A stretch of 64,000 nucleotides of DNA from an uncultured Oscillospiraceae bacterium (GTDB taxonomy: Bacteria > Bacillota > Clostridia > Oscillospirales > Acutalibacteraceae): the NCBI GenBank assembly GCA_900552265.1, contig URZE01000003.1, forward strand, positions 23,336 to 87,335, given 5' to 3'. Below are positions 1,937-54,869 of this stretch, one piece after another. The translations under genes were made by a program, and so were the position numbers. The stretch's first letter is position 1. Every line of letters starts with the position of its first letter. The notes beneath the pieces were generated by a model. That model did no database searches, was not told where the DNA came from, and saw only the letters and a list, made by a program, of their open reading frames with translations.

Positions 1937-2026
1937 TGGCGGAGCGGGTGGGATTCGAACCCACGTGCGGTTGCCCGCAAACTGATTTCGAGTCAGCCCC
2001 GTTATGACCACTTCGATACCGCTCCA
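1937..2026 (-). tRNA. tRNA-Ser (anticodon CGA)
   Basis: 90-nt cloverleaf on the minus strand. Acceptor ggagcgg/ccgctcc, long variable arm, anticodon loop cuCGAaa, T-loop GGTTCGAATCC, encoded CCA. Confidence 0.8.
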
Positions 2027-4039: not shown

Positions 4040-4113
4040 GCGGGTGTAGTTCAATGGTAGAACTTCAGCCTTCCAAGCTGATAGCGTGGGTTCGATTCCC
4101 ATCACCCGCTCCA
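4040..4113 (+). tRNA. tRNA-Gly (anticodon TCC)
   Basis: gcgggtgtagttcaatggtagaac...ccTTCCaag...gggttcgattccc...cacccgctcca. Cloverleaf with CCA. Confidence 0.85.
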
Positions 4114-4150
4114 ATTCGCCGGTCTGATTTGCGACGTGGTGCTGACATCT

Positions 4151-4227
4151 GCGCTAGTAGCTCAGCAGGATAGAGCAACTGCCTTCTAAGCAGTAGGTCA
4201 GGGGTTCGAATCCCTTCTGGCGCACCA
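4151..4227 (+). tRNA. tRNA-Arg (anticodon TCT)
   Basis: gcgctagtagctcagcaggatagagc...ctTCTaa...ggttcgaatccc...tggcgcacca. Confidence 0.85.
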
Positions 4228-4236
4228 TGAATATAT

Positions 4237-4314
4237 GGTGGATATAGCTCAGTTGGCTAGAGCGCCAGATTGTGGCTCTGGAGGCCATCGGTTCAACTCC
4301 GATTATCCACCCCA
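4237..4314 (+). tRNA. tRNA-His (anticodon GTG) with the extra 5' G(-1)
   Basis: g-gtggatatagctcagttggctagagc...ttGTGgc...ggttcaactccg...tatccac-c-cca. G-1 is present, as is typical of tRNA-His. Confidence 0.85.
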
Positions 4315-4338
4315 TTCAGTTTAATTTTAAATTTATAT

Positions 4339-4413
4339 TGGGGTGTCGCCAAGCGGTAAGGCAATGGACTTTGACTCCATCATTCGCTGGTTCGAATCCA
4401 GCCATCCCAGCCA
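4339..4413 (+). tRNA. tRNA-Gln (anticodon TTG)
   Basis: tggggtgtcgccaagcggtaaggc...cTTTGac...ggttcgaatccagc...catcccagcca. Confidence 0.85.
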
Positions 4414-4437
4414 TTTTTTATTTTGTATAATTTATAA

Positions 4438-4513
4438 GAGCCATTAGCTCAGTTGGTAGAGCACCTGACTTTTAATCCGGTTGTCCGGGGTTCGAGTCCC
4501 CGATGGCTCACCA
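4438..4513 (+). tRNA. tRNA-Lys (anticodon TTT)
   Basis: gagccattagctcagttggtagagc...ctTTTaa...ggttcgagtcccc...atggctcacca. One mismatch (T-C) in the anticodon stem. Confidence 0.8.
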
Positions 4514-8983: not shown

Positions 8984-9487
8984 ATGAAAAATTTTGAAAA
9001 AATATTCGGTCTTATGCAAACCTCATTCCCTGAAAACGAATTCAGAACTTTCGAAAATCAAAAAAATTTGCTTAAAAATCCACACTACAAAATAATAACC
9101 AAAGAAAACGAAAAGAATGATATTATTGCATTTCTGGCTTTTTGGTCGTTTGAAAATTTCAATTTCATAGAACATCTTGCCGTAGACCCTTCTTGCAGAG
9201 GTAAAGGAACAGGGACAAAAATTGTATCTGATTTTATAAAGGAAAACTCATCAAAACCAATTATCCTTGAAATCGAGCCTCCAACAGACGAAATCAGCAT
9301 TAAAAGACTTAAATTTTACGAAAAACTTGGATTTAAACTGAATAATTATGAATATTTTCAGATTCCTCTCAGAGAAAATCAAACACCGTTCAAACTCAAC
9401 TTAATGAGTTATCCTGAAAAATTAACTCCTGAAGAATTTGAAAATATAAAAAATAAAATACACTCCAAAGCGTACAGGGCCAACTAA
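8984..9487 (+). CDS. GNAT family N-acetyltransferase
   Basis: 167 aa. Acetyl-CoA binding motif HLAVDPSCRGKGTGTKIV. RBS AAAGGAG. Confidence 0.7.
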   Translation: MKNFEKIFGLMQTSFPENEFRTFENQKNLLKNPHYKIITKENEKNDIIAFLAFWSFENFNFIEHLAVDPSCRGKGTGTKIVSDFIKENSSKPIILEIEPPTDEISIKRLKFYEKLGFKLNNYEYFQIPLRENQTPFKLNLMSYPEKLTPEEFENIKNKIHSKAYRAN

Positions 9488-13434: not shown

Positions 13435-15231
13435 GTGATATTTATAAAAATAAAATATTTAAAAAAATCATTAAAATATCTTTCTACATATCGAAATATG
13501 TTGTTTTTAATTTTATTCAATTTGATTATATCGCAGATATGCGGATTTTTTTTGCCCTGTATAATGGCTGATATTGTAGATATAGGTATAAAACAACATG
13601 GATTTGTTGATATGGGAATTGTACGGGCGACTATGTCGGAATCTGAAATAATAAGGTGTCAAACTTCATACATACTGTCAAAGGGAGCAATTATGACGGG
13701 AATCACGCTGATTGTAGTGATTCTTGACGCTTTTACGGGGTATATAATTTCAAAAATTTCAGCGGATATGTCATTAAAGCTCAGGAGAGATGTGTTTTTA
13801 AAAATATCTGATTTTTCATATCGAGATTACGATAAATTTTCCGTCTCTTCGCTTATAACAAGAGCTACTTCCGATGTGGAAAGTGTAAAGATCATGGTTT
13901 TATCTTCCACAAAAATGGTAATTCTGCCTTTTATGATAGGCGGCGGAATTTTTATGGCAATACAAAAAAGTGCTTCAATGAGCAGTATAATGGCATGGGG
14001 ATCTGTTGGAGCCGTCGTGTGTGTTACAGCGTGTTTTTTGTTGGTAACTCCCAAAGTGAAAATTTTTCAAAAATTATTTGACAATTTCAATCAAATAATA
14101 AAGGAACGATTAAGCGGAGTACAGTTAATACGTGTTTTCGGTAAAGAAGAGTTTGAGCGTAAGAAATTTAAAAAATCAAATGAGAAATTAACTTCAACTT
14201 CGCTATTTATAAATAAGATTACAATTATGATGGTTCCGATTCTTACTGCTATAATAAATTTTATGACAGTTTTTATTGTTTGGGTCGGAGCTGAAAATAT
14301 AAGTAAAAGCAGTATGAATGTCGGAGATGTAATGGCTTTTTTGCAATACGCAACAATGGTAATAACGGCATTTGTAATGCTTTCGATAACGATTTCTTCT
14401 ATGCCGAAATTTTGGGTATCAGCAGAAAGAATTTTTGAAGTGCTGGACACAGAAACAGTTACTAAAAATGAGGGAAAAAAATTTATTGAAAATATAAATT
14501 TAATTGAATTCAAAGACGTTGAATTCAGATATCCGGGAGCAGAAGAAAACGTTTTAAGTAATTTAAATTTTACTATAAAAGCTGGAGACCGAATAGCAAT
14601 AACGGGAACTACGGGTTCAGGTAAATCCACATTGATTAAACTTTTGCTCGGATTTTATGCACCGTCAAACGGAAGTATACTTGTGAATGGTACTGACTTG
14701 AAAGATATCGATAAAAAAAATTTTTTAGAAAAAATCTCATATGTTCCGCAGGCCGGAACGCTGTTTTCGGGAAAACTTTCTTCTAATTTGCGTATAGGAA
14801 ATGAAAATGCAACAAAAGATGAAATGAAGCGTTCGTTGGAAATTGCTCAGATATCTGATTTTGTAAATGAAAACGGATTTGATTTTGAAATAATGAAAAA
14901 CGGTAACAATATTTCGGGAGGACAACGACAAAGAATAGCAATAGCTCGAGCTATTCTGAGAAATGCCGATATGTATGTGTTTGACGATAGTTTTTCTCGA
15001 TTAGATTTCAAAACTGATTCAAATTTAAGGAAAGCTCTTAATACACAAATTAAAGACGCTGTAAAAGTGACGGTTTCTCAAAGAATAGGTACGATAAAAC
15101 AATCTGATATGATAATTGTTTTAGATGAAGGAAAAATTTCCGGAATCGGAACTCATGAAAAACTCATGCTCGAATGTGAAATTTATAAAAATATGGCGGA
15201 ACTTCAGCTGGGAAAGGAGGAAGCAAAGTAA
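13435..15231 (+). CDS. ABC exporter, fused permease/ATPase (heterodimer subunit 1)
   Basis: 598 aa. Six TM segments then an NBD (Walker A GTTGSGKST, signature ISGGQRQRIAIARA, Walker B MYVFDDSFS). Exact start uncertain; the ATG at 13498 is possible. Confidence 0.85.
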   Translation: MIFIKIKYLKKSLKYLSTYRNMLFLILFNLIISQICGFFLPCIMADIVDIGIKQHGFVDMGIVRATMSESEIIRCQTSYILSKGAIMTGITLIVVILDAFTGYIISKISADMSLKLRRDVFLKISDFSYRDYDKFSVSSLITRATSDVESVKIMVLSSTKMVILPFMIGGGIFMAIQKSASMSSIMAWGSVGAVVCVTACFLLVTPKVKIFQKLFDNFNQIIKERLSGVQLIRVFGKEEFERKKFKKSNEKLTSTSLFINKITIMMVPILTAIINFMTVFIVWVGAENISKSSMNVGDVMAFLQYATMVITAFVMLSITISSMPKFWVSAERIFEVLDTETVTKNEGKKFIENINLIEFKDVEFRYPGAEENVLSNLNFTIKAGDRIAITGTTGSGKSTLIKLLLGFYAPSNGSILVNGTDLKDIDKKNFLEKISYVPQAGTLFSGKLSSNLRIGNENATKDEMKRSLEIAQISDFVNENGFDFEIMKNGNNISGGQRQRIAIARAILRNADMYVFDDSFSRLDFKTDSNLRKALNTQIKDAVKVTVSQRIGTIKQSDMIIVLDEGKISGIGTHEKLMLECEIYKNMAELQLGKEEAK

Positions 15232-17024
15232 TGAAGTCAAATGAGCAAACAAAAGATAAATCGCAAAATTCGGAAATAAAGAGAACAAGGTATAATATAA
15301 AGAAAGTTTGGAATTATGTTTCCGAATATAAGATATATATTTTTGTTATATTTATTTTTGCAATCCTTGAATCTTTGTCGATTGTTTTTGGTCCCAAACT
15401 TACCGGTAGTGCGATTACATTGCTGTCTGAAGAAAATATTGACTTTGATTATCTTTTTAAAATAATAATTAAAATGTTGTTGCTTTTTTCTGTTTATGCA
15501 TTGTCGTCATGTCTTGGTAGTTATTTCGTGTCACTTGTGACGATAAAAGTAACATACAGACTTCGCAATGAAATATCTCTCAAAATGGACAAGCTTTCTC
15601 TTGAATACATTAACAGCGTTAGTTATGGTGATGTCCTTTCTTGTGTTATGAACGATGTAGAAAGTCTTAGTTCAGCGTTTACACAAAGCATAAGTCGTAT
15701 TGCTTCATCTGTTGTAATGGCAATCGGAGTACTTTTTATGATGATATCAATAAGCTTTAAAATGACTCTTGCTTTTATAGCTGTTTTACCTGTGATAGGG
15801 ATTGTAGCGGTGATCATCTTAAAAAAATCACAAAAATATTTTGTTGAATATCAAAAACAACTCGGAGAAATAAATGGATTTATAGAAGAAACTTTTTCAG
15901 GTCACGAAGTTATAAGTATTTTTAATGCAAAAGATAAAATTAAAAACAATTTTGATGAAATAAATCATAGAATGTACGATTCTTCTCAAAAATCACAATT
16001 TTTATCAGGAATTACTCCTTGTGTGGTGGAAATGATTTCTAAAGCAAGTTACATAGTTTCATGCGTAATGGGAGGATATCTTGCGGTTATGAAATTACTG
16101 AGTATAGGTGATATAACAGCTTTCATTGCGTATTCTAATCAGTTTATGGAACCGGTCATTCAGGTAACTTCCATTTCGGGAATTCTACAGCAAATAGTCG
16201 CTTCTTCACAGAGAATTTTTGAATTTCTTGAAGCACCCGAAGAACCACAAAATGATAAAGAAGATTTGGATGTAAATATTAATTCTCTACAAACATATGA
16301 GATAGAATTTAAAAATGTAAGTTTTGGATATACTTCCGAAAAGAAAATAATAAAAGATTTTTCACTTAAAGTTAAATTAGGTCAAACTCTTGCAATAGTA
16401 GGAGAAACGGGTTCCGGTAAAACCACTCTTATAAATATTTTAATGAGATTTTTGGAAAATTTTGAGGGAGAAATATTGTTAGGTGGAAAAAATATAAAAA
16501 GTTTTTCTCTCAAAGAATACCGTAAACTATTTGGATTGGTAACTCAAGATTCCTGGTTATACGGCGGTACAATATATGAAAATATAGCTTACGGAAAAGA
16601 AAATTCTTCCGAAAATGAAATAAAATTTGCAGCTGAACATGTAGGAGCAAGTCATTTTATAGAGTCTTTACCTGCAGGATACAATACTGTAATTGCAGAA
16701 AATATGTATAACATATCCGAAGGTCAAAAACAGCTTTTATGTATTGCAAGAATGATATTGAAAAACGCTCCGATTTTTATCATGGATGAAGCCACATCTT
16801 CCGTCGACGTTTTTACGGAAAGCCGTATACAGAATACTCTAAAAAAAATTCTAAAGGATAAGACTTCCATTGTAATAGCGCACAGACTTAGTACTATAAA
16901 AAATGCTGATCTTGTGGCCGTTATGGAAAAAGGTAAACTTATGGAAATAGGTACGCATGATGAGCTTATGCATAAAGAGGGAATATATTTCAACATGTAT
17001 ATGAGTCAATTTGATAGAGTATAA
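15231..17024 (+). CDS. ABC exporter, fused permease/ATPase (heterodimer subunit 2)
   Basis: 597 aa. TMD then NBD (GETGSGKTT, ISEGQKQLLCIARM, IFIMDEATSS). Start overlaps the upstream stop (TAATG). Confidence 0.85.
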   Translation: MKSNEQTKDKSQNSEIKRTRYNIKKVWNYVSEYKIYIFVIFIFAILESLSIVFGPKLTGSAITLLSEENIDFDYLFKIIIKMLLLFSVYALSSCLGSYFVSLVTIKVTYRLRNEISLKMDKLSLEYINSVSYGDVLSCVMNDVESLSSAFTQSISRIASSVVMAIGVLFMMISISFKMTLAFIAVLPVIGIVAVIILKKSQKYFVEYQKQLGEINGFIEETFSGHEVISIFNAKDKIKNNFDEINHRMYDSSQKSQFLSGITPCVVEMISKASYIVSCVMGGYLAVMKLLSIGDITAFIAYSNQFMEPVIQVTSISGILQQIVASSQRIFEFLEAPEEPQNDKEDLDVNINSLQTYEIEFKNVSFGYTSEKKIIKDFSLKVKLGQTLAIVGETGSGKTTLINILMRFLENFEGEILLGGKNIKSFSLKEYRKLFGLVTQDSWLYGGTIYENIAYGKENSSENEIKFAAEHVGASHFIESLPAGYNTVIAENMYNISEGQKQLLCIARMILKNAPIFIMDEATSSVDVFTESRIQNTLKKILKDKTSIVIAHRLSTIKNADLVAVMEKGKLMEIGTHDELMHKEGIYFNMYMSQFDRV

Positions 17025-17235
17025 AACTAAGCCACCGAATATATCGGTGGCTGTTAATTTGTCTGTTAAAAGTATAAAATTTAAATTTTGATTTTTTACC
17101 TTTCATTGGGAAAGGAAAAATTACTTAGTCTTTTGGGTGGCATATAGGGTTGCTCTGGAGATTCACGGAAAGTAGTAGGTGTTCTAAGACTTTTTAATAT
17201 TTCCTTGTATTTTACCGTATTTTTTTTGACATCAC

Positions 17236-17547
17236 CTATGAGATTTTTTCACCGGTAGAAAGTTTATTCAATAATGTTACACGAGTAATGTCTCTAATGA
17301 CATTTTCATAATTTTCTTGTGTAAAGTTTTTTCCACCGCCGATACTTTCTAATTCTTCCTCAGAAATTTCTCCATTTTTTTCTTCGAATAATTCGAATAT
17401 TTTTTTCAATTCATTTGCTTTTTCAAGAGATATCTCTATTCCGTTGTCGTTAAGATATTTTTTAATTTCCTCCCCACTTGCAAGTGACTGGAGATATGGA
17501 ACGGTATCGGGTTTATCTAAAAATTCTATTATTTGCTCTTTTTCCAT
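17236..17547 (-). CDS. Nif11-like leader / double-glycine precursor peptide (about 73-aa leader, 30-aa Cys-free core)
   Basis: 103 aa. N-terminal Nif11-type domain (MEKEQIIEFLDK...SGEEIKKYLNDNGIEISLEKANEL). ISEEELESIGGG matches LSxxELxxIxGG. Core KNFTQENYENVIRDITRVTLLNKLSTGEKIS. RBS AGGAAG. Confidence 0.6.
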   Translation of the reverse strand: MEKEQIIEFLDKPDTVPYLQSLASGEEIKKYLNDNGIEISLEKANELKKIFELFEEKNGEISEEELESIGGGKNFTQENYENVIRDITRVTLLNKLSTGEKIS

Positions 17548-17829
17548 GGTTAACTTCCTTTCTATTAAAAAATTTGTTACTATTATATATTATTATTTAA
17601 TATAATACAATAAAAAAATTAAAAATATTAAAATAATATACTTTTTTTAAAAACATTTTAATATATAAAAATATTTTTTATTTAATATTAAGAAAATAAA
17701 AACACATAAAAACTGCAATATGTGTAGTTATATGGCATGTTATAAACCTTAACATATAACAATATTTGGTGGAAGTGTAACATATTGGTTAACGGATATA
17801 AAACCTTTTCGGTTCGGCTAAAAAATGAT

Positions 17830-17961
17830 ATGGTGGAGCAACTCGACCGTGTTGCATTTAATACGGGGAGAAGCAGAAATGAACTGATAGGGATGATGCT
17901 TCGTTTCGCTCTGGATAACTGCAAAATCGAAGGGAGTACCCCTTCAATAAGTGGGTTCTGA
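17830..17961 (+). CDS. possible ribbon-helix-helix (CopG/Arc-like) small protein, 43 aa (below ORF-track cutoff); maybe a remnant
   Basis: MVEQLDRVAFNTGRSRNELIGMMLRFALDNCKIEGSTPSISGF. Beta-strand plus helix pattern of RHH antitoxin/repressor N-termini. Lies in a GC-richer island inside a 0.9-kb AT-rich spacer. No clear SD. Confidence 0.3.
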   Translation: MVEQLDRVAFNTGRSRNELIGMMLRFALDNCKIEGSTPSISGF

Positions 17962-18163
17962 TTTATAAAGTCAGGCCCGGTTTTGCTACATAAATTACAG
18001 CAGATACAAAGTATAATTTGTACCTGCCGTAGTTTCGTATATATTTTTATGCTTCTTAGTTTTTTTCTTTTTTTATTCCGAATATTTTTCTCAAAATAAA
18101 TCCTAAAACACCGGGACTTTTTATTACAACAACTTTCATCCGTTAAACCCCCTATATTCAGAA

Positions 18164-18370
18164 TCAACATTTTATAAGAGCTATCGATAATATTACAAGT
18201 ATAATCGATATTATAATAATGATCAGAGATTCAGGAAATAAAAATGAAAGCGTAAGCCCCAGCCCGAAAGCAAGTGCCAGAATGCCTTGCTGTTTGTAGC
18301 CGCACATAAACTTCACCGCCGTTACTTTGAAAATTAATATGCGAATATAAGCCCGACTGAAACTTAACAT
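18164..18370 (-). CDS. hypothetical small membrane protein (2 predicted TM)
   Basis: 68 aa, very hydrophobic (ILALAFGLGLTLSFLF...IIIIISIILVILSIALI). Sits in an AT-rich region, so it may be spurious. Confidence 0.2.
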   Translation of the reverse strand: MLSFSRAYIRILIFKVTAVKFMCGYKQQGILALAFGLGLTLSFLFPESLIIIIISIILVILSIALIKC

Positions 18371-22594: not shown

Positions 22595-23056
22595 ATGAAT
22601 AAAAAATTATTAGAAAAATTAAAACAAACAGGTCTTATGGAAAAAATAGTTGATTGTAGTAACAAAAAGGAAATCAAAAAGATTAACAATGAAGAAATAA
22701 ACAACCAAATTAACAAAATTCCTTTCACAATATCTAAGATAGATGAAGAAGATATGGAAAATATTTCAGGAGGAATTGGAGAAATTCGAGATACACTTGC
22801 TCACCTTATCGACAACATCGGATATGGAATTTATAGATTCAATAACACAAATGAAAAAGCAATAGAAGACTATAATTTTAAAGACAAAATTATTGATAAT
22901 TTTCAATTGTTCACGCTTAAACATTCTGAAGATATAGCAAATGTAACACTAGGAGCAGTAATTATAACAGGATGGGTTATGTTGGGACGTTTTGTATATA
23001 AAAAGCTGGGTAATAAAAAGGATTGGTGGAAAAATAACACAATTAGTAAAAATTAA
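22595..23056 (+). CDS. double-glycine leader precursor protein (Nif11-like 59-aa leader; 94-aa core with one TM helix and a basic tail)
   Basis: 153 aa. Leader ends IDEEDMENISGG. Core contains VTLGAVIITGWVMLGRFVYKKL. The core is paralogous to the next ORF's core. RBS AGGAG. Confidence 0.55.
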   Translation: MNKKLLEKLKQTGLMEKIVDCSNKKEIKKINNEEINNQINKIPFTISKIDEEDMENISGGIGEIRDTLAHLIDNIGYGIYRFNNTNEKAIEDYNFKDKIIDNFQLFTLKHSEDIANVTLGAVIITGWVMLGRFVYKKLGNKKDWWKNNTISKN

Positions 23057-24271: not shown

Positions 24272-26434
24272 TTACTGAACTACTTGACGAACAGCTAATT
24301 CATAAAACTCACCTTTTTTATCCATAAGGTCATCATAAGTTCCTTCTTCTACTATTTTTCCTTTATCCATAACAAGGATTCTGTCACAATTTTTTATTGT
24401 AGAAAGTCTGTGAGCTATCACAATCCTTGTACTTTTAAGCTGAGATATACTGTTTACCACATGACTTTGAGTTATGTTATCAAGAGCAGATGTAGCTTCA
24501 TCCAAAAACAATATTGAAGGTCTATTTATAATCGCTCGAGCTATCATAAGTCTTTGTTTCTGTCCTCCGGAAAGTCCTCCCGAACCTTCGGAAATCAGCG
24601 TATGCATACCCATTGGCATTGCTTTTATATCATTATCTATTCCTGCCAAACGAGCTGCTTCCCATGCATCATCCATTGTTTTCCAGGGTGATGTTATTAT
24701 TATGTTGGAAAAAATGTCACTCGGGAACAACGAACCGTTTTGCATTACCACGCCTATTTTTTGACGAACACTTCTAAGATCAAGTCCGGAAAGATCATGG
24801 CCGTCATAATACACCGCTCCGGTGTCAGGATCCTCAAATCCGAGTAAAATTCTCATCAAAGTTGATTTTCCGCAACCTGTTTTTCCTACTATTGCAACAT
24901 ATTCTCCCTTTTTCACTTTAAGGTTTATGTTATCAAGAATTGTCGGACCGTCTTTATCATATTTAAAAGAAATATTATTAACTTCAATATTTCCGGAAAG
25001 AGATGTCGGAATTTTACGTCCGGCGCTGCTTTCGGGTTTTTGTTCCATAACAGGTTTAATCATCTTCAATATAGGACCGAGATTGGCAAATTTAAGAGCT
25101 ACCGCACTAAGTGACATTATTGCCCCCGTAACCGAACCGTAAGCGGTATTGAATCCCATATAATCCTCTAAGCTTACATGAGTTGTAACTGTACAATAAT
25201 ATAATACCATTTGTCCCACTGTAGATATTATCAGGCCTATAATACCGCTTATTTTTATGAGAAGTGGCGGAGAATAATCAAGTTTTTCTACCTCAGAATA
25301 ACTCTCAGCCCATTTTGCAAAGGCTCTTTTCTCGGAACCGGTAACTTTTATCTTCTGTATACCTCCGAAAAGAGCGTATGTCAGAGATTGTAATTTTGGA
25401 TCAAGGTCAAGTCTTTTTTTGTATATCTTTTGTCTGTAAAGAGTTATAAATACCTGATAAACAACTGTAACCACCACGATAATCATTCCCGGTACCACAA
25501 GTGATGGTCCGTATTGATACATCTGGAAGAAATATGCCAAAGAGAAAACAGCTGAAAGAGTAGCTGAAAATGATTCTCTGATTATCTGACAAAGAGTAGC
25601 TATATACCCCATTCGGCTTGCAAGTTCACCGGCAGTGTAACTTTTGAAAAACTTAGTCGGCAAAGTGAAAAAACGTATCATTATTGCACTGTTAACCGAA
25701 ATAGTCATCCTCGTGCTAAGGCGATTCGAAACTATACTGTTCGTAATCGACATAAGCGTTTCTCCTACAGTTTTTCCTATGAAGAATGCAGCCAACGGCC
25801 AAATAAGCGAAAGTGTACCTGAAGGAATTATGTTTTTATATATAATTTTCTGAATAATAGGACCCGTCATTCCAAGCAACTGAGCAACTGCATACGCTGA
25901 TAAAATAAATACGACATCTATAAAAGACAAGCTTTCTATCATAAATTTTATCAAATCACGTATTTTAAGGGACGTCAGAGGGAACGCACGATAAAAACAA
26001 AAAGCGTCTACATTTATATCCTTTGCAGTTTTGCTGTTTACTTTTATCTTATTTCCATCTGCATTTATATATTCGTATCCTCCCCACTTACGAGGGAAAA
26101 TCGCAACCACATTCCCATCTTTAGTTGAACCTAAAAGACATCCCATACTGTCTTTCCACCACTCACCGTTAAGCTCCACACGTCTTCTCATAGTGTTTGA
26201 CGGTTTGAGCATGTAATCAAGCTGAGCGTCTAAAGTAGCTACACTGTCAGGAACCGTTGGAATTTCTTTTCCGAGATATCTGAGTATCTGAGCAACAGCT
26301 CCCTTAGCTTGTTTATGCATTTTGGGTGTATCTATACCTACAATCGAAAGCAAATCCGAAAATGCTCCTTGAAACATCTCATCATCGCTTCTTCTTCTTC
26401 TTTGAACCTGACTTTCCAAAAAATTTGTTTCCAT
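24272..26434 (-). CDS. NHLM-type bacteriocin-system ABC transporter, ATP-binding/permease with degenerate N-terminal peptidase-like domain (ABC2)
   Basis: 720 aa. N-terminal ~170 aa resemble the C-terminal half of a C39 domain but lack the catalytic Cys/His. Then 6 TM and an NBD (GKTGCGKST, LSGGQKQRLMIARA, ILFLDEATSALD). Confidence 0.75.
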   Translation of the reverse strand: METNFLESQVQRRRRSDDEMFQGAFSDLLSIVGIDTPKMHKQAKGAVAQILRYLGKEIPTVPDSVATLDAQLDYMLKPSNTMRRRVELNGEWWKDSMGCLLGSTKDGNVVAIFPRKWGGYEYINADGNKIKVNSKTAKDINVDAFCFYRAFPLTSLKIRDLIKFMIESLSFIDVVFILSAYAVAQLLGMTGPIIQKIIYKNIIPSGTLSLIWPLAAFFIGKTVGETLMSITNSIVSNRLSTRMTISVNSAIMIRFFTLPTKFFKSYTAGELASRMGYIATLCQIIRESFSATLSAVFSLAYFFQMYQYGPSLVVPGMIIVVVTVVYQVFITLYRQKIYKKRLDLDPKLQSLTYALFGGIQKIKVTGSEKRAFAKWAESYSEVEKLDYSPPLLIKISGIIGLIISTVGQMVLYYCTVTTHVSLEDYMGFNTAYGSVTGAIMSLSAVALKFANLGPILKMIKPVMEQKPESSAGRKIPTSLSGNIEVNNISFKYDKDGPTILDNINLKVKKGEYVAIVGKTGCGKSTLMRILLGFEDPDTGAVYYDGHDLSGLDLRSVRQKIGVVMQNGSLFPSDIFSNIIITSPWKTMDDAWEAARLAGIDNDIKAMPMGMHTLISEGSGGLSGGQKQRLMIARAIINRPSILFLDEATSALDNITQSHVVNSISQLKSTRIVIAHRLSTIKNCDRILVMDKGKIVEEGTYDDLMDKKGEFYELAVRQVVQ

Positions 26435-26447
26435 GTCCGCTCACCTC

Positions 26448-28628
26448 CTATTCCGTTATTACGAGTTCTTTATATTTTCCGCCTTGAGCCATAAGTTCAT
26501 CGTGAGTACCACGCTCGGCAACCCTACCATGATCTAACACAATTATTTCATTACAGTCACGTATGGTTGAAAGCCTATGAGCAATGACTATACATGTGCA
26601 GCCTGATTTTCTTATATTGCTCATTACGATATTTTCGGTTTTAGCATCAAGCGCAGATGTTGCTTCGTCAAGAATGATAACCGTAGGTTCCTGAGCAAGA
26701 GCTCGAGCAATTTCAATACGCTGACACTGACCTCCTGAAAAATCTGTTCCGCCTTCGCTTATTACGTGGTCGTAACCATCAGGTCTCGAAATTATGGCGC
26801 TGTGTATGTCGGAATCTCTCGCAGCTAAAGTTACAGAGAAATCCTCTATAGACTCATCCCACATTCTTATGTTATTTTTAACGGTATCGTGAAACATTAT
26901 TTTGTCCTGGTCAACCATTACTACCGAACTGTGAAATTTATATGGATCTATTTGATCCTTTTTCATTCCATCGAAAGTTATTTCACCTTCCCATGGTTTG
27001 TAAAGACCCGTTATCAATTTTGCAACGGTTGATTTTCCGCTTCCGCTTCCTCCTACAACCGCAACCCACTGTCCCGGTTTAAGACTCATGTTAAAATCTT
27101 CAAGAATCGGTTTTGCAAGCCTTCCGTATCCAAATGTTATTCCTTTTACATTTACATAACCCTTTAATTTTGTGTCATCTTTGACACTTTCTTCACTTAC
27201 TTCCGGAACATCTACCGGATAATCCAAAACGTCTTCAACACGCTCCATTTCACAGCGCATTCCAATATAGTTTTGATATATGTCTATAATGCTTCCCACA
27301 GGGCTCAAAAACATCGACAAATATCCTTGAAATGCTCCCAGCATACCTACCGTGAAATGTCCCTGCATAATGATATAAATACCGCAGAGAACTAAAATAC
27401 ATCCAGAAATGCTATCGACAAATGACGGAATCGTTCCGATATACTGTGTAAACTTGGACATATTTGCAACAGCATTATTTTGCTTCGCAAAATATCCTGC
27501 CCATCTTTCAAAATATCCGCTTTCCGCTCCAGTGGATTTTATTGTTTCTATCATCTCAAATCCGGAATACGTTACACTCATGAGTTTTCCCTGATTAGGC
27601 ATTGAAGCTCTTTGAAAATCAAGCATCTTCTCTGACATATATCTTGCCAAAAACATATTTATGGCAGTTGCTCCGATTCCTATCAAAGTAAGAACCCAGC
27701 TATATTTAATCATAATGAAAAGGTAAAAGAAAAGAGAAACTATTCCACTGAACATAGGTGCTATTTTATGAATAAGAGTAAGCGCTATAGATGAGGTGGA
27801 ATCCTGACGTGAAACAACGTCTCCAACATTACGTTGAGAAAAGAAATCTAACGGTAACCGGAGAACATGCCACATGAATTCCGCACTGGAAGTAAGGGCA
27901 AATTTTCCTTCTATCTTAAGCCAGTAAATAGAATTTATAATACCTACCAAAACTTGTACAAGAAGTACAACTCCCATAATTCCTAAAAACGGCATCAGCC
28001 ATTCGGGATTTTTCCCTGTAAGTAGATTATCCGTAAATACACGTGTAAACATTGGTGAAGTGGTTGCAATAACGTCTCCCACTACGCTTATAATTACTGC
28101 CAATACAAACGGTACAAGCGCTCCTTTAAGACACCTCTTAGCAAATGAGAAAACACTCTTCGGCTTTCCCTCGGGTTTAAATTCTTCCGTTGGTTGCATA
28201 GTAAGTGCAATTCCCGTAAAAGCCTTATCAAATTCTTCCCCTGAAACCGTTACTTTTCCTCTTGCCGGATCGTTAATGTAATACTTATTCTTTTTTTCGT
28301 TTATACCGCACAGCACAACAAAGTGATTGAAATTCCAATGGATTATTACAGGTAAAGTCAAAGAACTCAAAGATGATGGCTCAAGTCTATACCCTCCCGA
28401 TTCAAATCCATAAGAACGTGCTGCAGCAAGCATATTCTTAGCTACACTACCGTCACGTGAAACTCCGCAATCTGCACGAACTTGAGTTAAAGGAATCCAT
28501 TTCTTGTAGTAAGCGGCTATCATACATACACACGCTGCTCCACATTCAAGAGCTTCCATCTGCATTACAATCGGCACTTTCAACCTTTTGCGTAACATCA
28601 GTACGCACCTCCTATCATTTATTTTCAA
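26448..28628 (-). CDS. peptidase-containing ABC transporter (C39 double-glycine peptidase + permease + ATPase), NHLM ABC1 / PCAT
   Basis: 726 aa. N-terminal C39 domain with intact catalytic triad context (QMEALECGAACVCMIAAYY; NHFVVLCGI; YINDP). TMD. NBD (GGSGSGKST, FSGGQCQRIEIARA, VIILDEATSALD). Overlaps the upstream HlyD-like gene by 14 nt. Confidence 0.85.
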   Translation of the reverse strand: MKINDRRCVLMLRKRLKVPIVMQMEALECGAACVCMIAAYYKKWIPLTQVRADCGVSRDGSVAKNMLAAARSYGFESGGYRLEPSSLSSLTLPVIIHWNFNHFVVLCGINEKKNKYYINDPARGKVTVSGEEFDKAFTGIALTMQPTEEFKPEGKPKSVFSFAKRCLKGALVPFVLAVIISVVGDVIATTSPMFTRVFTDNLLTGKNPEWLMPFLGIMGVVLLVQVLVGIINSIYWLKIEGKFALTSSAEFMWHVLRLPLDFFSQRNVGDVVSRQDSTSSIALTLIHKIAPMFSGIVSLFFYLFIMIKYSWVLTLIGIGATAINMFLARYMSEKMLDFQRASMPNQGKLMSVTYSGFEMIETIKSTGAESGYFERWAGYFAKQNNAVANMSKFTQYIGTIPSFVDSISGCILVLCGIYIIMQGHFTVGMLGAFQGYLSMFLSPVGSIIDIYQNYIGMRCEMERVEDVLDYPVDVPEVSEESVKDDTKLKGYVNVKGITFGYGRLAKPILEDFNMSLKPGQWVAVVGGSGSGKSTVAKLITGLYKPWEGEITFDGMKKDQIDPYKFHSSVVMVDQDKIMFHDTVKNNIRMWDESIEDFSVTLAARDSDIHSAIISRPDGYDHVISEGGTDFSGGQCQRIEIARALAQEPTVIILDEATSALDAKTENIVMSNIRKSGCTCIVIAHRLSTIRDCNEIIVLDHGRVAERGTHDELMAQGGKYKELVITE

Positions 28629-29202
28629 ATATCAACTCATAGAGCTTTGTTTCTCCTACAACTGCGGATACTTCACAATTGGTACCCTCAACAATTTCAA
28701 TTTCATTTCCTTTGTCGTTGGACCATTCTCCGAGAGCAATTTCAACCTCCATTACATTCCCATGTTGCATCGCAGAACTTACAAGAGGAACCACAACCTG
28801 AGGATTACCGAATTTTTCATTCAAATAATCACCGGTTACTATATCATCACTGATTCTAAGTATTGTTCCATTCATATAACCATATTCTGAACTTGGTGCG
28901 TCCTCAGGAGAAATCCTTGCAGACATTCCTTCTTTCAAACGTTTACTTGCCGAAATTGGAACATAACAATAAATTCTTTGTGAATTACTTACATCCTTAG
29001 CGATTACCCCTTGCATATCTACGGTTTTCGGAATTCCTCCTGAAAAAATCCATATCGCTCCTGCAGACAGAATAGTAAATATTCCGATAAGTATAGCTAT
29101 CAGGCTGGGATTGACTACTTTAATGTATTCGTTAAGCTGTTCCGGCGAAGAAACTCTCTCCAACGAACTTTTTCGAAATAAACTACTTTCATTTTCTGAC
29201 AT
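28615..29202 (-). CDS. short HlyD-family membrane fusion/secretion adaptor protein
   Basis: about 195 aa. N-terminus LERVSSPEQLNEYIKVVNPSLIAILIGIFTILSAGAIWIFSG is the HlyD-family signature region plus one TM. Short beta-rich periplasmic part with no long coiled coil. Probable ATG start at 29202 (RBS AAGGAAAGGTG). Confidence 0.6.
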   Translation of the reverse strand: MSENESSLFRKSSLERVSSPEQLNEYIKVVNPSLIAILIGIFTILSAGAIWIFSGGIPKTVDMQGVIAKDVSNSQRIYCYVPISASKRLKEGMSARISPEDAPSSEYGYMNGTILRISDDIVTGDYLNEKFGNPQVVVPLVSSAMQHGNVMEVEIALGEWSNDKGNEIEIVEGTNCEVSAVVGETKLYELIFENK

Positions 29203-29370
29203 ATTTCTCACCTTTCCTTAAATCTTTATTTTATTAAACACACTGTACTTTACTATTTAAAAATAATAATATAAAAATATTCTCAAGTCAATATATTTTT
29301 GGTGATTTATATATAAAACAACAACAAAATAACAGACCTTTCATATAAAAAATCTGTTATATATCATTTT

Positions 29371-52258: not shown

Positions 52259-52334
52259 TGGAGCTACCGGGCGGACTCGAACCGCCGACCTGCTGATTAC
52301 GAATCAGCTGCTCTACCAACTGAGCCACGGTAGC
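52259..52334 (-). tRNA. tRNA-Thr (anticodon CGT)
   Basis: Minus-strand gctaccgtggctcagttggtagagc...ttCGTaa...ggttcgagtccgcc...ggtagctcca. Confidence 0.85.

Positions 52335-54793: not shown

Positions 54794-54869
<76 letters not shown>

Follow-up and report, generated by a model that had tools for sequence, protein, structure and literature searches.

The window, by which we mean the whole 64-kb stretch of DNA analysed, carries on its minus strand a small gene (17236..17547) for a putative double-glycine precursor peptide. It encodes 103 amino acids between an ATG start and a TAG stop at 17236-17238, and its translation exactly matches the protein quoted in an earlier sequence-only reading of this DNA. 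A Shine-Dalgarno-like AAGGAAG (17554..17560, minus strand), read from the sequence, lies 6 nt 5′ of the ATG, and promoter-like hexamers are present in the very AT-rich spacer 5′ of the gene. A bidirectional intrinsic terminator with a 9-bp stem (17030..17052) is common to the peptide gene and the ABC operon convergent with it. Identical copies of the protein occur in at least 31 public contigs, and comparison of the leader between the window and a sister species gave dN 0.068, dS 1.479 and dN/dS ~0.05, indicative of strong purifying selection. Because a ribosome-binding site, a terminator, this number of contigs with an identical protein and such a dN and dS (1.48 when rounded) come together, the 103-codon ORF is a genuine gene, beyond a chance ORF.

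The host DNA has 33.9% GC and contains spoIIE and spoIIID, which mark the organism as a spore-former, and contigs with relatives of the host come from gut metagenomes. The sizeable ORFs at ~5-37 kb, all accounted for, include secA, gpsA, a RimI-like GNAT gene, ftsZ, spoIIID, an ABC pair, an XRE gene, a sigma fragment, spoIIE, an export cassette and a V-ATPase. The V-type ATPase operon, recognized from reading translations, follows the export cassette at ~29.4-36.8 kb. Eight tRNA genes lie in the window (1940-2025, 4040-4510, 52262-52334 and 54797-54869), five of them clustered at 4040-4510.

The genes on either side of the precursor gene are a transporter pair and a candidate regulator. The ABC pair is a heterodimeric MsbA-like exporter encoded on the plus strand at 13435..17024 (13435-15231 and 15231-17024), convergent with the precursor gene. 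Its subunits hold ABC_membrane and ABC_tran domains only, which agrees with the earlier description of a convergent pair devoid of a peptidase domain. A divergent CopG-type ribbon-helix-helix (RHH) gene lies on the plus strand at 17785..17961 (RHH_1 22.8 bits). A 160-aa ORF at 17688-18170 on the minus strand, called as a 159-aa gene in public assemblies, runs antisense across the RHH gene; its translation is of low complexity and Cys/Lys-rich, and it is probably a spurious call.

The export cassette lies further along the minus strand. Its central gene (26448..28628) encodes an ABC exporter with a C39 peptidase domain (PCAT), predicted to act as leader peptidase and exporter, with 873.6 bits to TIGR03796 (cut-off 853.3) and 123 bits to Peptidase_C39. 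The adjoining gene (24272..26434, minus strand) encodes a second ABC subunit without a peptidase domain (TIGR03797 724.5 bits, cut-off 709.4). A short HlyD-like accessory protein of 198 aa (28615..29211, minus strand) gave a partial TIGR03794 match of 95.7 bits, below the cut-off of 156.2; it matches only positions 294-416 of the 421-position model and has no Pfam match. The distance of ~7 kb to the PCAT operon proposed at the outset is accurate, with the precursor gene 6.7 kb from the operon end and 8.9 kb from the C39 gene. In the one species checked, an NHLP/N11P export cassette and the precursor co-occur in the same window, 7-9 kb apart and not adjacent. Phylogenetic profiling has shown that the TIGR03794, TIGR03796 and TIGR03797 families accompany NHLP and N11P precursors, and that precursors may sit away from the processing genes (Haft, Basu & Mitchell 2010). 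Work on LahT150 from a Lachnospiraceae bacterium found that the last 13 residues of a Nif11-type leader are enough for C39 cleavage at GG, and that Nif11-type leaders are present in gut Clostridia.

A GG-leader motif occurs in just three ORFs of the 64-kb window, namely the precursor and two located directly beside the C39 transporter. The latter two, at 22595-23056 and 23308/23320-23691 on the plus strand, have the motifs EDMENISGG and EDMESIFGG and cores of ~93-96 aa with one hydrophobic helix each near the C-terminus. Neither gave a family match, and both are 95-99% conserved between strains, unlike the precursor locus. Of the two, the 127-aa ORF is probably translated from its fifth codon on, giving 123 aa. 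For the 153-aa protein, a shared Nif11-like leader was ruled out by an hhalign probability of 0.3%.

None of the sizeable ORFs at ~5-37 kb encodes a RiPP-modifying enzyme (LanM, YcaO, rSAM etc.). Because no such enzyme lies within ~10 kb on either side, the gene content does not support the label "RiPP" in the strict sense for this precursor. A GNAT acyltransferase (8984-9487) was considered for this role and rejected, as its RimI-like match is weak and it lies 8 kb off with housekeeping genes between.

Relatives of the precursor were difficult to find by simple means. A word-indexed protein search returned three clusters only. A pattern scan of one-genome-per-species contigs with the precursor peptide gave no relatives, and a scan of the same contigs with the neighbouring ABC protein gave best matches of only ≤41% identity. 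An exhaustive HMMER search of 1.84 billion representatives with a profile of two long homologues (E≤1e-3) yielded 70 proteins. When 69 of these relatives were aligned, the only near-invariant columns were G71 and G72 (window numbering), each kept in at least 90%, so the GG position is conserved in homologues.

These two residues close the leader (codons 1-72; 17332..17547, minus strand), which consists of a Nif11-like four-helix domain (residues 1-56) and the motif EISEEELESIGGG (residues 60-72), with predicted cleavage after G72. The motif is of the ELSDEELEAVAGG type with the conserved Gly-Gly at G71-G72, and the LSxxELxxIxGG-like cleavage signal proposed earlier is in this way upheld by the relatives. 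An AF2 model based on the 69-sequence alignment has leader helices at residues 3-10, 15-21, 25-34 and 41-56 (pLDDT 88-95 at residues 11-50), a short helix at 63-69 before the GG, and a core of low confidence. Neither a PDB sequence search with the leader profile (nothing significant) nor a Foldseek search of the PDB with the AF2 model (nothing at E≤0.001) added a structural relative.

A Nif11-type leader had been proposed from the sequence, and the two domain models suggested for checking it did not identify it in the 103-aa protein by itself. Pfam Nif11 (PF07862) gave no match even at E≤10, and TIGR03798 (leader_Nif11) gave 17.4 bits (E 0.004), below its curated cut-off of 32.3. The immediate clade of the precursor scores 14-24 bits throughout, all sub-threshold. 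The identification is borne out via homologues: 49 of the 69 relatives match TIGR03798 (E≤0.01; best 2.9e-15), seven match PF07862 (best E 1.1e-8), and seven more distant relatives pass the curated TIGR03798 cut-off (33.7-56.3 bits). An hhalign comparison of the clade N-terminal profile with these seven cut-off-passing relatives gave a probability of 98.1% (E 7.7e-14) over 52 columns. Only clade residues 1-57 were used, and the last ~15 leader residues including the GG motif were left out, because a shared acidic GG motif alone might drive the link. Since relatives that pass the cut-off bridge the sub-threshold match of the precursor itself, we conclude that the leader is, on profile evidence, a genuine but diverged Nif11-like (N11P) leader. 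Weak, sub-cut-off EF-hand and Cas9_PI Pfam matches of the 103-aa protein were treated as noise from an acidic helical leader.

The relatives also resemble bacteriocins after the GG, with 23 of the 69 matching TIGR03949, a class IIb bacteriocin model, and 13 matching Pfam Bacteriocin_IIc (PF10439). Six of them (P0022, P0025, P0027, P0029, P0033 and P0039) form a subfamily of ~100 aa with a Nif11-like leader, one hydrophobic helix and, at the C-terminus, a basic-Trp end (...RRW) that is strikingly conserved, and several of these pass the TIGR03798 cut-off. P0028 (556 aa) begins like a signal peptide and contains ~12 repeats in tandem, each of ~45 residues (ANGKWTKVLENVNNAMGAAAGAANIGATIYGATKMRR...), and six stretches of it match the profile of long cores (E 4.7e-5). 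The match may be due to composition, or P0028 may be a precursor of repeated peptides whose helix is similarly rich in Gly/Ala.

In the window the part after the GG, KNFTQENYENVIRDITRVTLLNKLSTGEKIS, spans 31 codons (KNFTQ...GEKIS; 17239..17331, minus strand). It is hydrophilic and lacks the hydrophobic helix of the family. It is indeed Cys-free, as the sequence-only reading stated, and its length is 31 aa, not the 30 given there. The common form of this gene is longer. Where the window has the short form, between the ABC pair and the small RHH gene, other contigs of the same species carry long forms of 158 and 159 aa, which belong to two homologous clusters. By cluster membership, the short form is present in ~34 contigs (P0001, P0072, P0073) and the 158/159-aa forms of the same species in ~64 (P0002, P0074-P0079). 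The sister species has the long form as well, and so do distant relatives, whose proteins measure 141-166 aa. The leader of one 158-aa form (P0074) is 100% identical to that of the window, and the 158-aa-allele contigs are ~99% identical to the window over 20 kb with the same synteny.

The long core is the conserved one. Core length is ~69-89 aa in conspecific strains and in all more distant clade relatives (~86 aa in the 158-aa allele), always with a hydrophobic helix. The long-core clade at this locus comprises P0002-P0013, P0023 and P0034. These 14 cores, from conspecific strains, the sister species and relatives down to ~25% identity, are alignable over ~80 columns and have in common a Gly-rich hydrophobic helix, a GGGKFxYDV motif and a SPYxKxVxxTA motif. 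The best 17-residue Kyte-Doolittle window scores 1.64-2.28 in all 14 (core positions ~3-31), as against 0.33 in the short core. An HMM built from the 14 cores gave the short core 2.8 bits, or 5.7 bits with one A restored to its A run, and the hydrophobic helix and both motifs are all lost from it. TIGR03949 and PF10439 gave no match to the 103-aa protein; the Gly-rich GxxxG-type helix after the GG, which is present in the long allele and relatives, is absent from it. In an AF2 model of the long allele the core has a pLDDT of 35-65, too uncertain for a fold search.

Substitution rates follow the same division between leader and core. The long core compared between species gave dN 0.46, dS 0.63 and dN/dS 0.73, as against ~0.05 for the leader, and divergence between alleles is limited to the core; the locus therefore displays the post-GG hypervariability typical of the precursor family. 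Between the short and the long allele, the in-frame codons 73-98 gave dN 0.36, dS 0.25 and dN/dS ~1.4. Conservation across related genomes, suggested earlier as a check on the core, holds for the leader and the GG and fails for the core. The idea of a Cys-free short core as the designed product is not borne out, since this core is conserved only in one near-clonal lineage. By these alignments, it is what remains, truncated and specific to one lineage, of a conserved ~86-residue cargo with a predicted membrane helix.

Divergence between the alleles is confined to a sharply bounded segment. Sliding-window comparison with L004 and L023-L025 placed an allele-specific variable segment of ~270 nt at 17084..17350 (minus strand). 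Identity is 98-100% outside it, with flanks at 99-100%, and 32-66% inside (50- and 100-nt windows). Apart from a 58-nt indel at ~17796, no other stretch of the 20 kb comes close to it in divergence. Its first ~110 nt are ~65% identical to the long allele and its last ~120 nt are unalignable, and the alleles are identical again from ~17083 onward. DNA alignments place a 1-nt gap relative to the long allele in an A6 run (T6 on the plus strand; 17244..17249), just before the premature TAG. An open -1 frame of 50 codons (KNLIGDVKK...FPNER, then a stop; 17096..17248, minus strand) overlaps the short ORF and runs past its stop, as a possible remnant of a longer core. By a rough estimate, its 47 open codons past the stop would arise by chance with a probability of ~0.02-0.03 at this composition, which hints that the segment was full-length coding until a recent frameshift.

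The short-allele contigs are 99.9% identical and near-clonal, which suggests a single origin for the allele. In-situ neutral decay cannot explain a divergence of ~50% between flanks of 99-100% identity. The indels and a substitution spectrum without adenine bias make a diversity-generating retroelement an unlikely cause. The simplest idea for the variable segment is that recombination brought in a divergent core. No donor was found in the window or in any locus fetched for comparison, and the clustered public proteins include no intact full-length version of the short allele. Elsewhere in the clade, P0017 (118 aa) has a leader as in P0007 up to ...SEEELD, followed by an unrelated sequence without a GG; on comparison of the two proteins, the clade thus has another case in which the core was lost or replaced.

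The 58-bp deletion near 17796 affects the RHH gene. Relative to L005 and L023-L025, it takes away the start codon, the ribosome-binding site and the first 13 codons, and the 58 bp are present in all other contigs, short and long allele alike. The RHH protein has 71 aa elsewhere, and the window keeps only a 58-aa TTG-initiated ORF. The putative regulator may be inactivated in the window genome.

Relatives whose peptides are only 30-47% identical still keep the peptide gene in synteny with the RHH gene and orthologues of the ABC pair (62-73% identical). We conjecture from this conserved synteny, the only link between pair and peptide, that the ABC pair may serve the peptide in immunity or export. 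In L026, the organism with P0004, whose FtsZ is 93.5% identical to that of the window, the peptide gene is directly convergent with ftsZ, and the segment with spoIIID and the ABC pair (window 12.6-17.0 kb) is absent or elsewhere.

Taken together, the reading we favour, with a probability of roughly 60%, is that the gene joins a diverged N11P leader to an ancestral ~86-residue cargo exported via the C39 cassette and that the window allele is a disarmed derivative. The ancestral and common form would be the 158-aa protein, made of the 72-residue leader and an unmodified cargo of ~86 residues with one Gly-rich hydrophobic helix, resembling class IIb bacteriocins, and a conserved C-terminal region. 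The C39 domain of the 26448-28628 transporter would recognize the last ~13 leader residues (EISEEELESIGGG) and cut after G72, and the cargo would leave the cell through this transporter and its partner ABC subunit with no modifying enzyme involved. The window allele would be derived and lineage-specific, its ~270-nt segment over the core having been replaced or scrambled and its frame ending early beside the A-run gap. Its product would be an intact, cleavable leader with a 31-residue hydrophilic tail, the helix and both motifs gone. Because this tail has none of the conserved family features, the short allele is most likely a loss-of-function allele segregating in the species. From the features above we infer that the C39 transporter cleaves the precursor and exports its cargo, that the long form acts like a bacteriocin and that the short form is non-functional. 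No immunity gene or partner peptide for the long form was identified.

The short allele could be functional after all: it is found in at least 34 contigs with ORF, ribosome-binding site and leader intact, which speaks against the disarmed reading. GG cleavage would then free a linear, unmodified, Cys-free hydrophilic 31-residue signal or a new soluble bacteriocin. The GG site and the terminator are also intact, the allele is frequent in metagenomes, the same genome has an intact export cassette, and cores of this precursor class are hypervariable by nature, as the long cores with their dN/dS of 0.73 illustrate. We nevertheless regard this as unlikely. The core is limited to one near-clonal lineage (99.9% identical), its DNA still shows some homology to the long core, together with a 1-nt gap and a premature stop, every feature conserved in the 14 long cores is gone, and the in-frame part compared with the long allele has a dN/dS of ~1.4. 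Neither a sensor kinase nor a response regulator lies nearby. A related reading would rescue the long product by -1 ribosomal or transcriptional slippage at the A6 run, so that part of the product is a protein of ~150 aa. The shift point is a homopolymer and the -1 frame is open well beyond the stop, yet a canonical in-frame X XXY YYZ heptamer is missing, a TGA stands in the -1 frame immediately before the run, and the frame-repaired protein has no hydrophobic helix and reaches only 5.7 bits with the HMM of the core family. As no full-length version of the short allele is found among the clustered public proteins either, slippage seems highly improbable to us.

Two further explanations concern where the peptide goes. 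The adjacent ABC pair (13435-17024) might be its exporter or immunity pump, leaving the C39 transporter to serve only the two neighbouring GG-motif proteins. This would account for the location of those two ORFs directly beside the C39 operon and for a peptide gene that stays convergent with the orthologous ABC gene down to 30-47% peptide identity. We consider it very unlikely, because a conserved GG leader needs a C39-type protease, which the pair does not contain; moreover, the peptide gene of the P0004 organism adjoins ftsZ without an ABC pair, and the C39 transporter belongs to precisely the type that goes with N11P leaders. The favoured reading leaves room for the pair in immunity too. 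The protein might instead be a small intracellular Nif11-domain protein that is not exported and in which the GG motif is incidental, since Nif11-domain proteins of unknown function exist outside RiPP contexts and this locus is vertically inherited among sporulation and division genes. A GG that is at least 90% conserved and preceded by a full ELSxEELExIxGG-like motif, bacteriocin-like hydrophobic cores in the relatives and a matching export cassette make this idea hard to credit.

A bolder proposal, which we hold to be rather doubtful, is that the locus represents an unannotated family in which a large (~86-aa) unmodified cargo rides on folded Nif11-like leaders, with armed (158-aa) and disarmed (103-aa, leader-only) alleles kept as a standing polymorphism. 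The family would be passed on vertically, next to a CopG-type regulator and a heterodimeric ABC exporter, within a low-GC clade of spore-forming gut bacteria. If the standing polymorphism is true, the strongly conserved leader that is kept, or else the new 31-mer, would serve a purpose in its own right, such as occupying the transporter or acting as a signal.

The locus shows that a clade of gut Firmicutes also has Nif11-type leaders, scoring under the present curated cut-offs, and that these are fused to long unmodified membrane-helix cargo and not to short modifiable cores. Genome mining by leader only can flag alleles with decayed cargo. The predicted 31-residue peptide should not be taken for a designed natural product, and the conserved long allele of sister strains is the better functional target.

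Among the closest known systems is PCAT1 of Clostridium thermocellum, with regard to transporter and cargo. PCAT1 is a C39-ABC exporter with the cargo CtA, whose leader is short and whose gene is adjacent to the transporter. The likeness lies in a clostridial C39-ABC exporter that processes a relatively large unmodified GG-leader cargo (as cited in PMC6363468). The present system differs in its Nif11-like leader, its two-ABC NHLP-type cassette and a gene 7-9 kb away.

The class IIb and other unmodified GG-leader bacteriocins (TIGR03949 lactobin A/cerein 7B; Bacteriocin_IIc) share with the long allele and many relatives a GG leader followed by an unmodified Gly-rich hydrophobic helix. Their leaders, however, are ~15-30 residues long, as compared with a folded domain of 72 residues here, and the long core has an extra hydrophilic tail of ~55 residues with conserved motifs. 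The window allele differs further in having neither the hydrophobic helix nor a TIGR03949 or PF10439 match.

With the N11P family (TIGR03798; Haft, Basu & Mitchell 2010), exemplified by prochlorosin ProcA and by LahA of Lachnospiraceae C6A11, the precursor shares a homologous helical leader of ~70 residues, an ELSxEELExIxGG-type end with a conserved Gly-Gly and a hypervariable sequence after it. The TIGR03794/03796/03797 cassette co-occurs in both cases, and in both the precursor gene may sit away from the transporter. The differences are a sub-cut-off score (17.4 vs 32.3 bits) with no Pfam Nif11 match, a Cys-free core, and no nearby LanM, cyclodehydratase or radical-SAM enzyme. In addition, the ancestral core, at ~86 aa, is long and contains a membrane-type helix; N11P cores are typically short and Cys/Gly/Ser-rich, and the average suffix of the TIGR03798 model is 23 residues. 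Judged by its leader homology, the precursor belongs to the known N11P/double-glycine class at a sub-threshold score.
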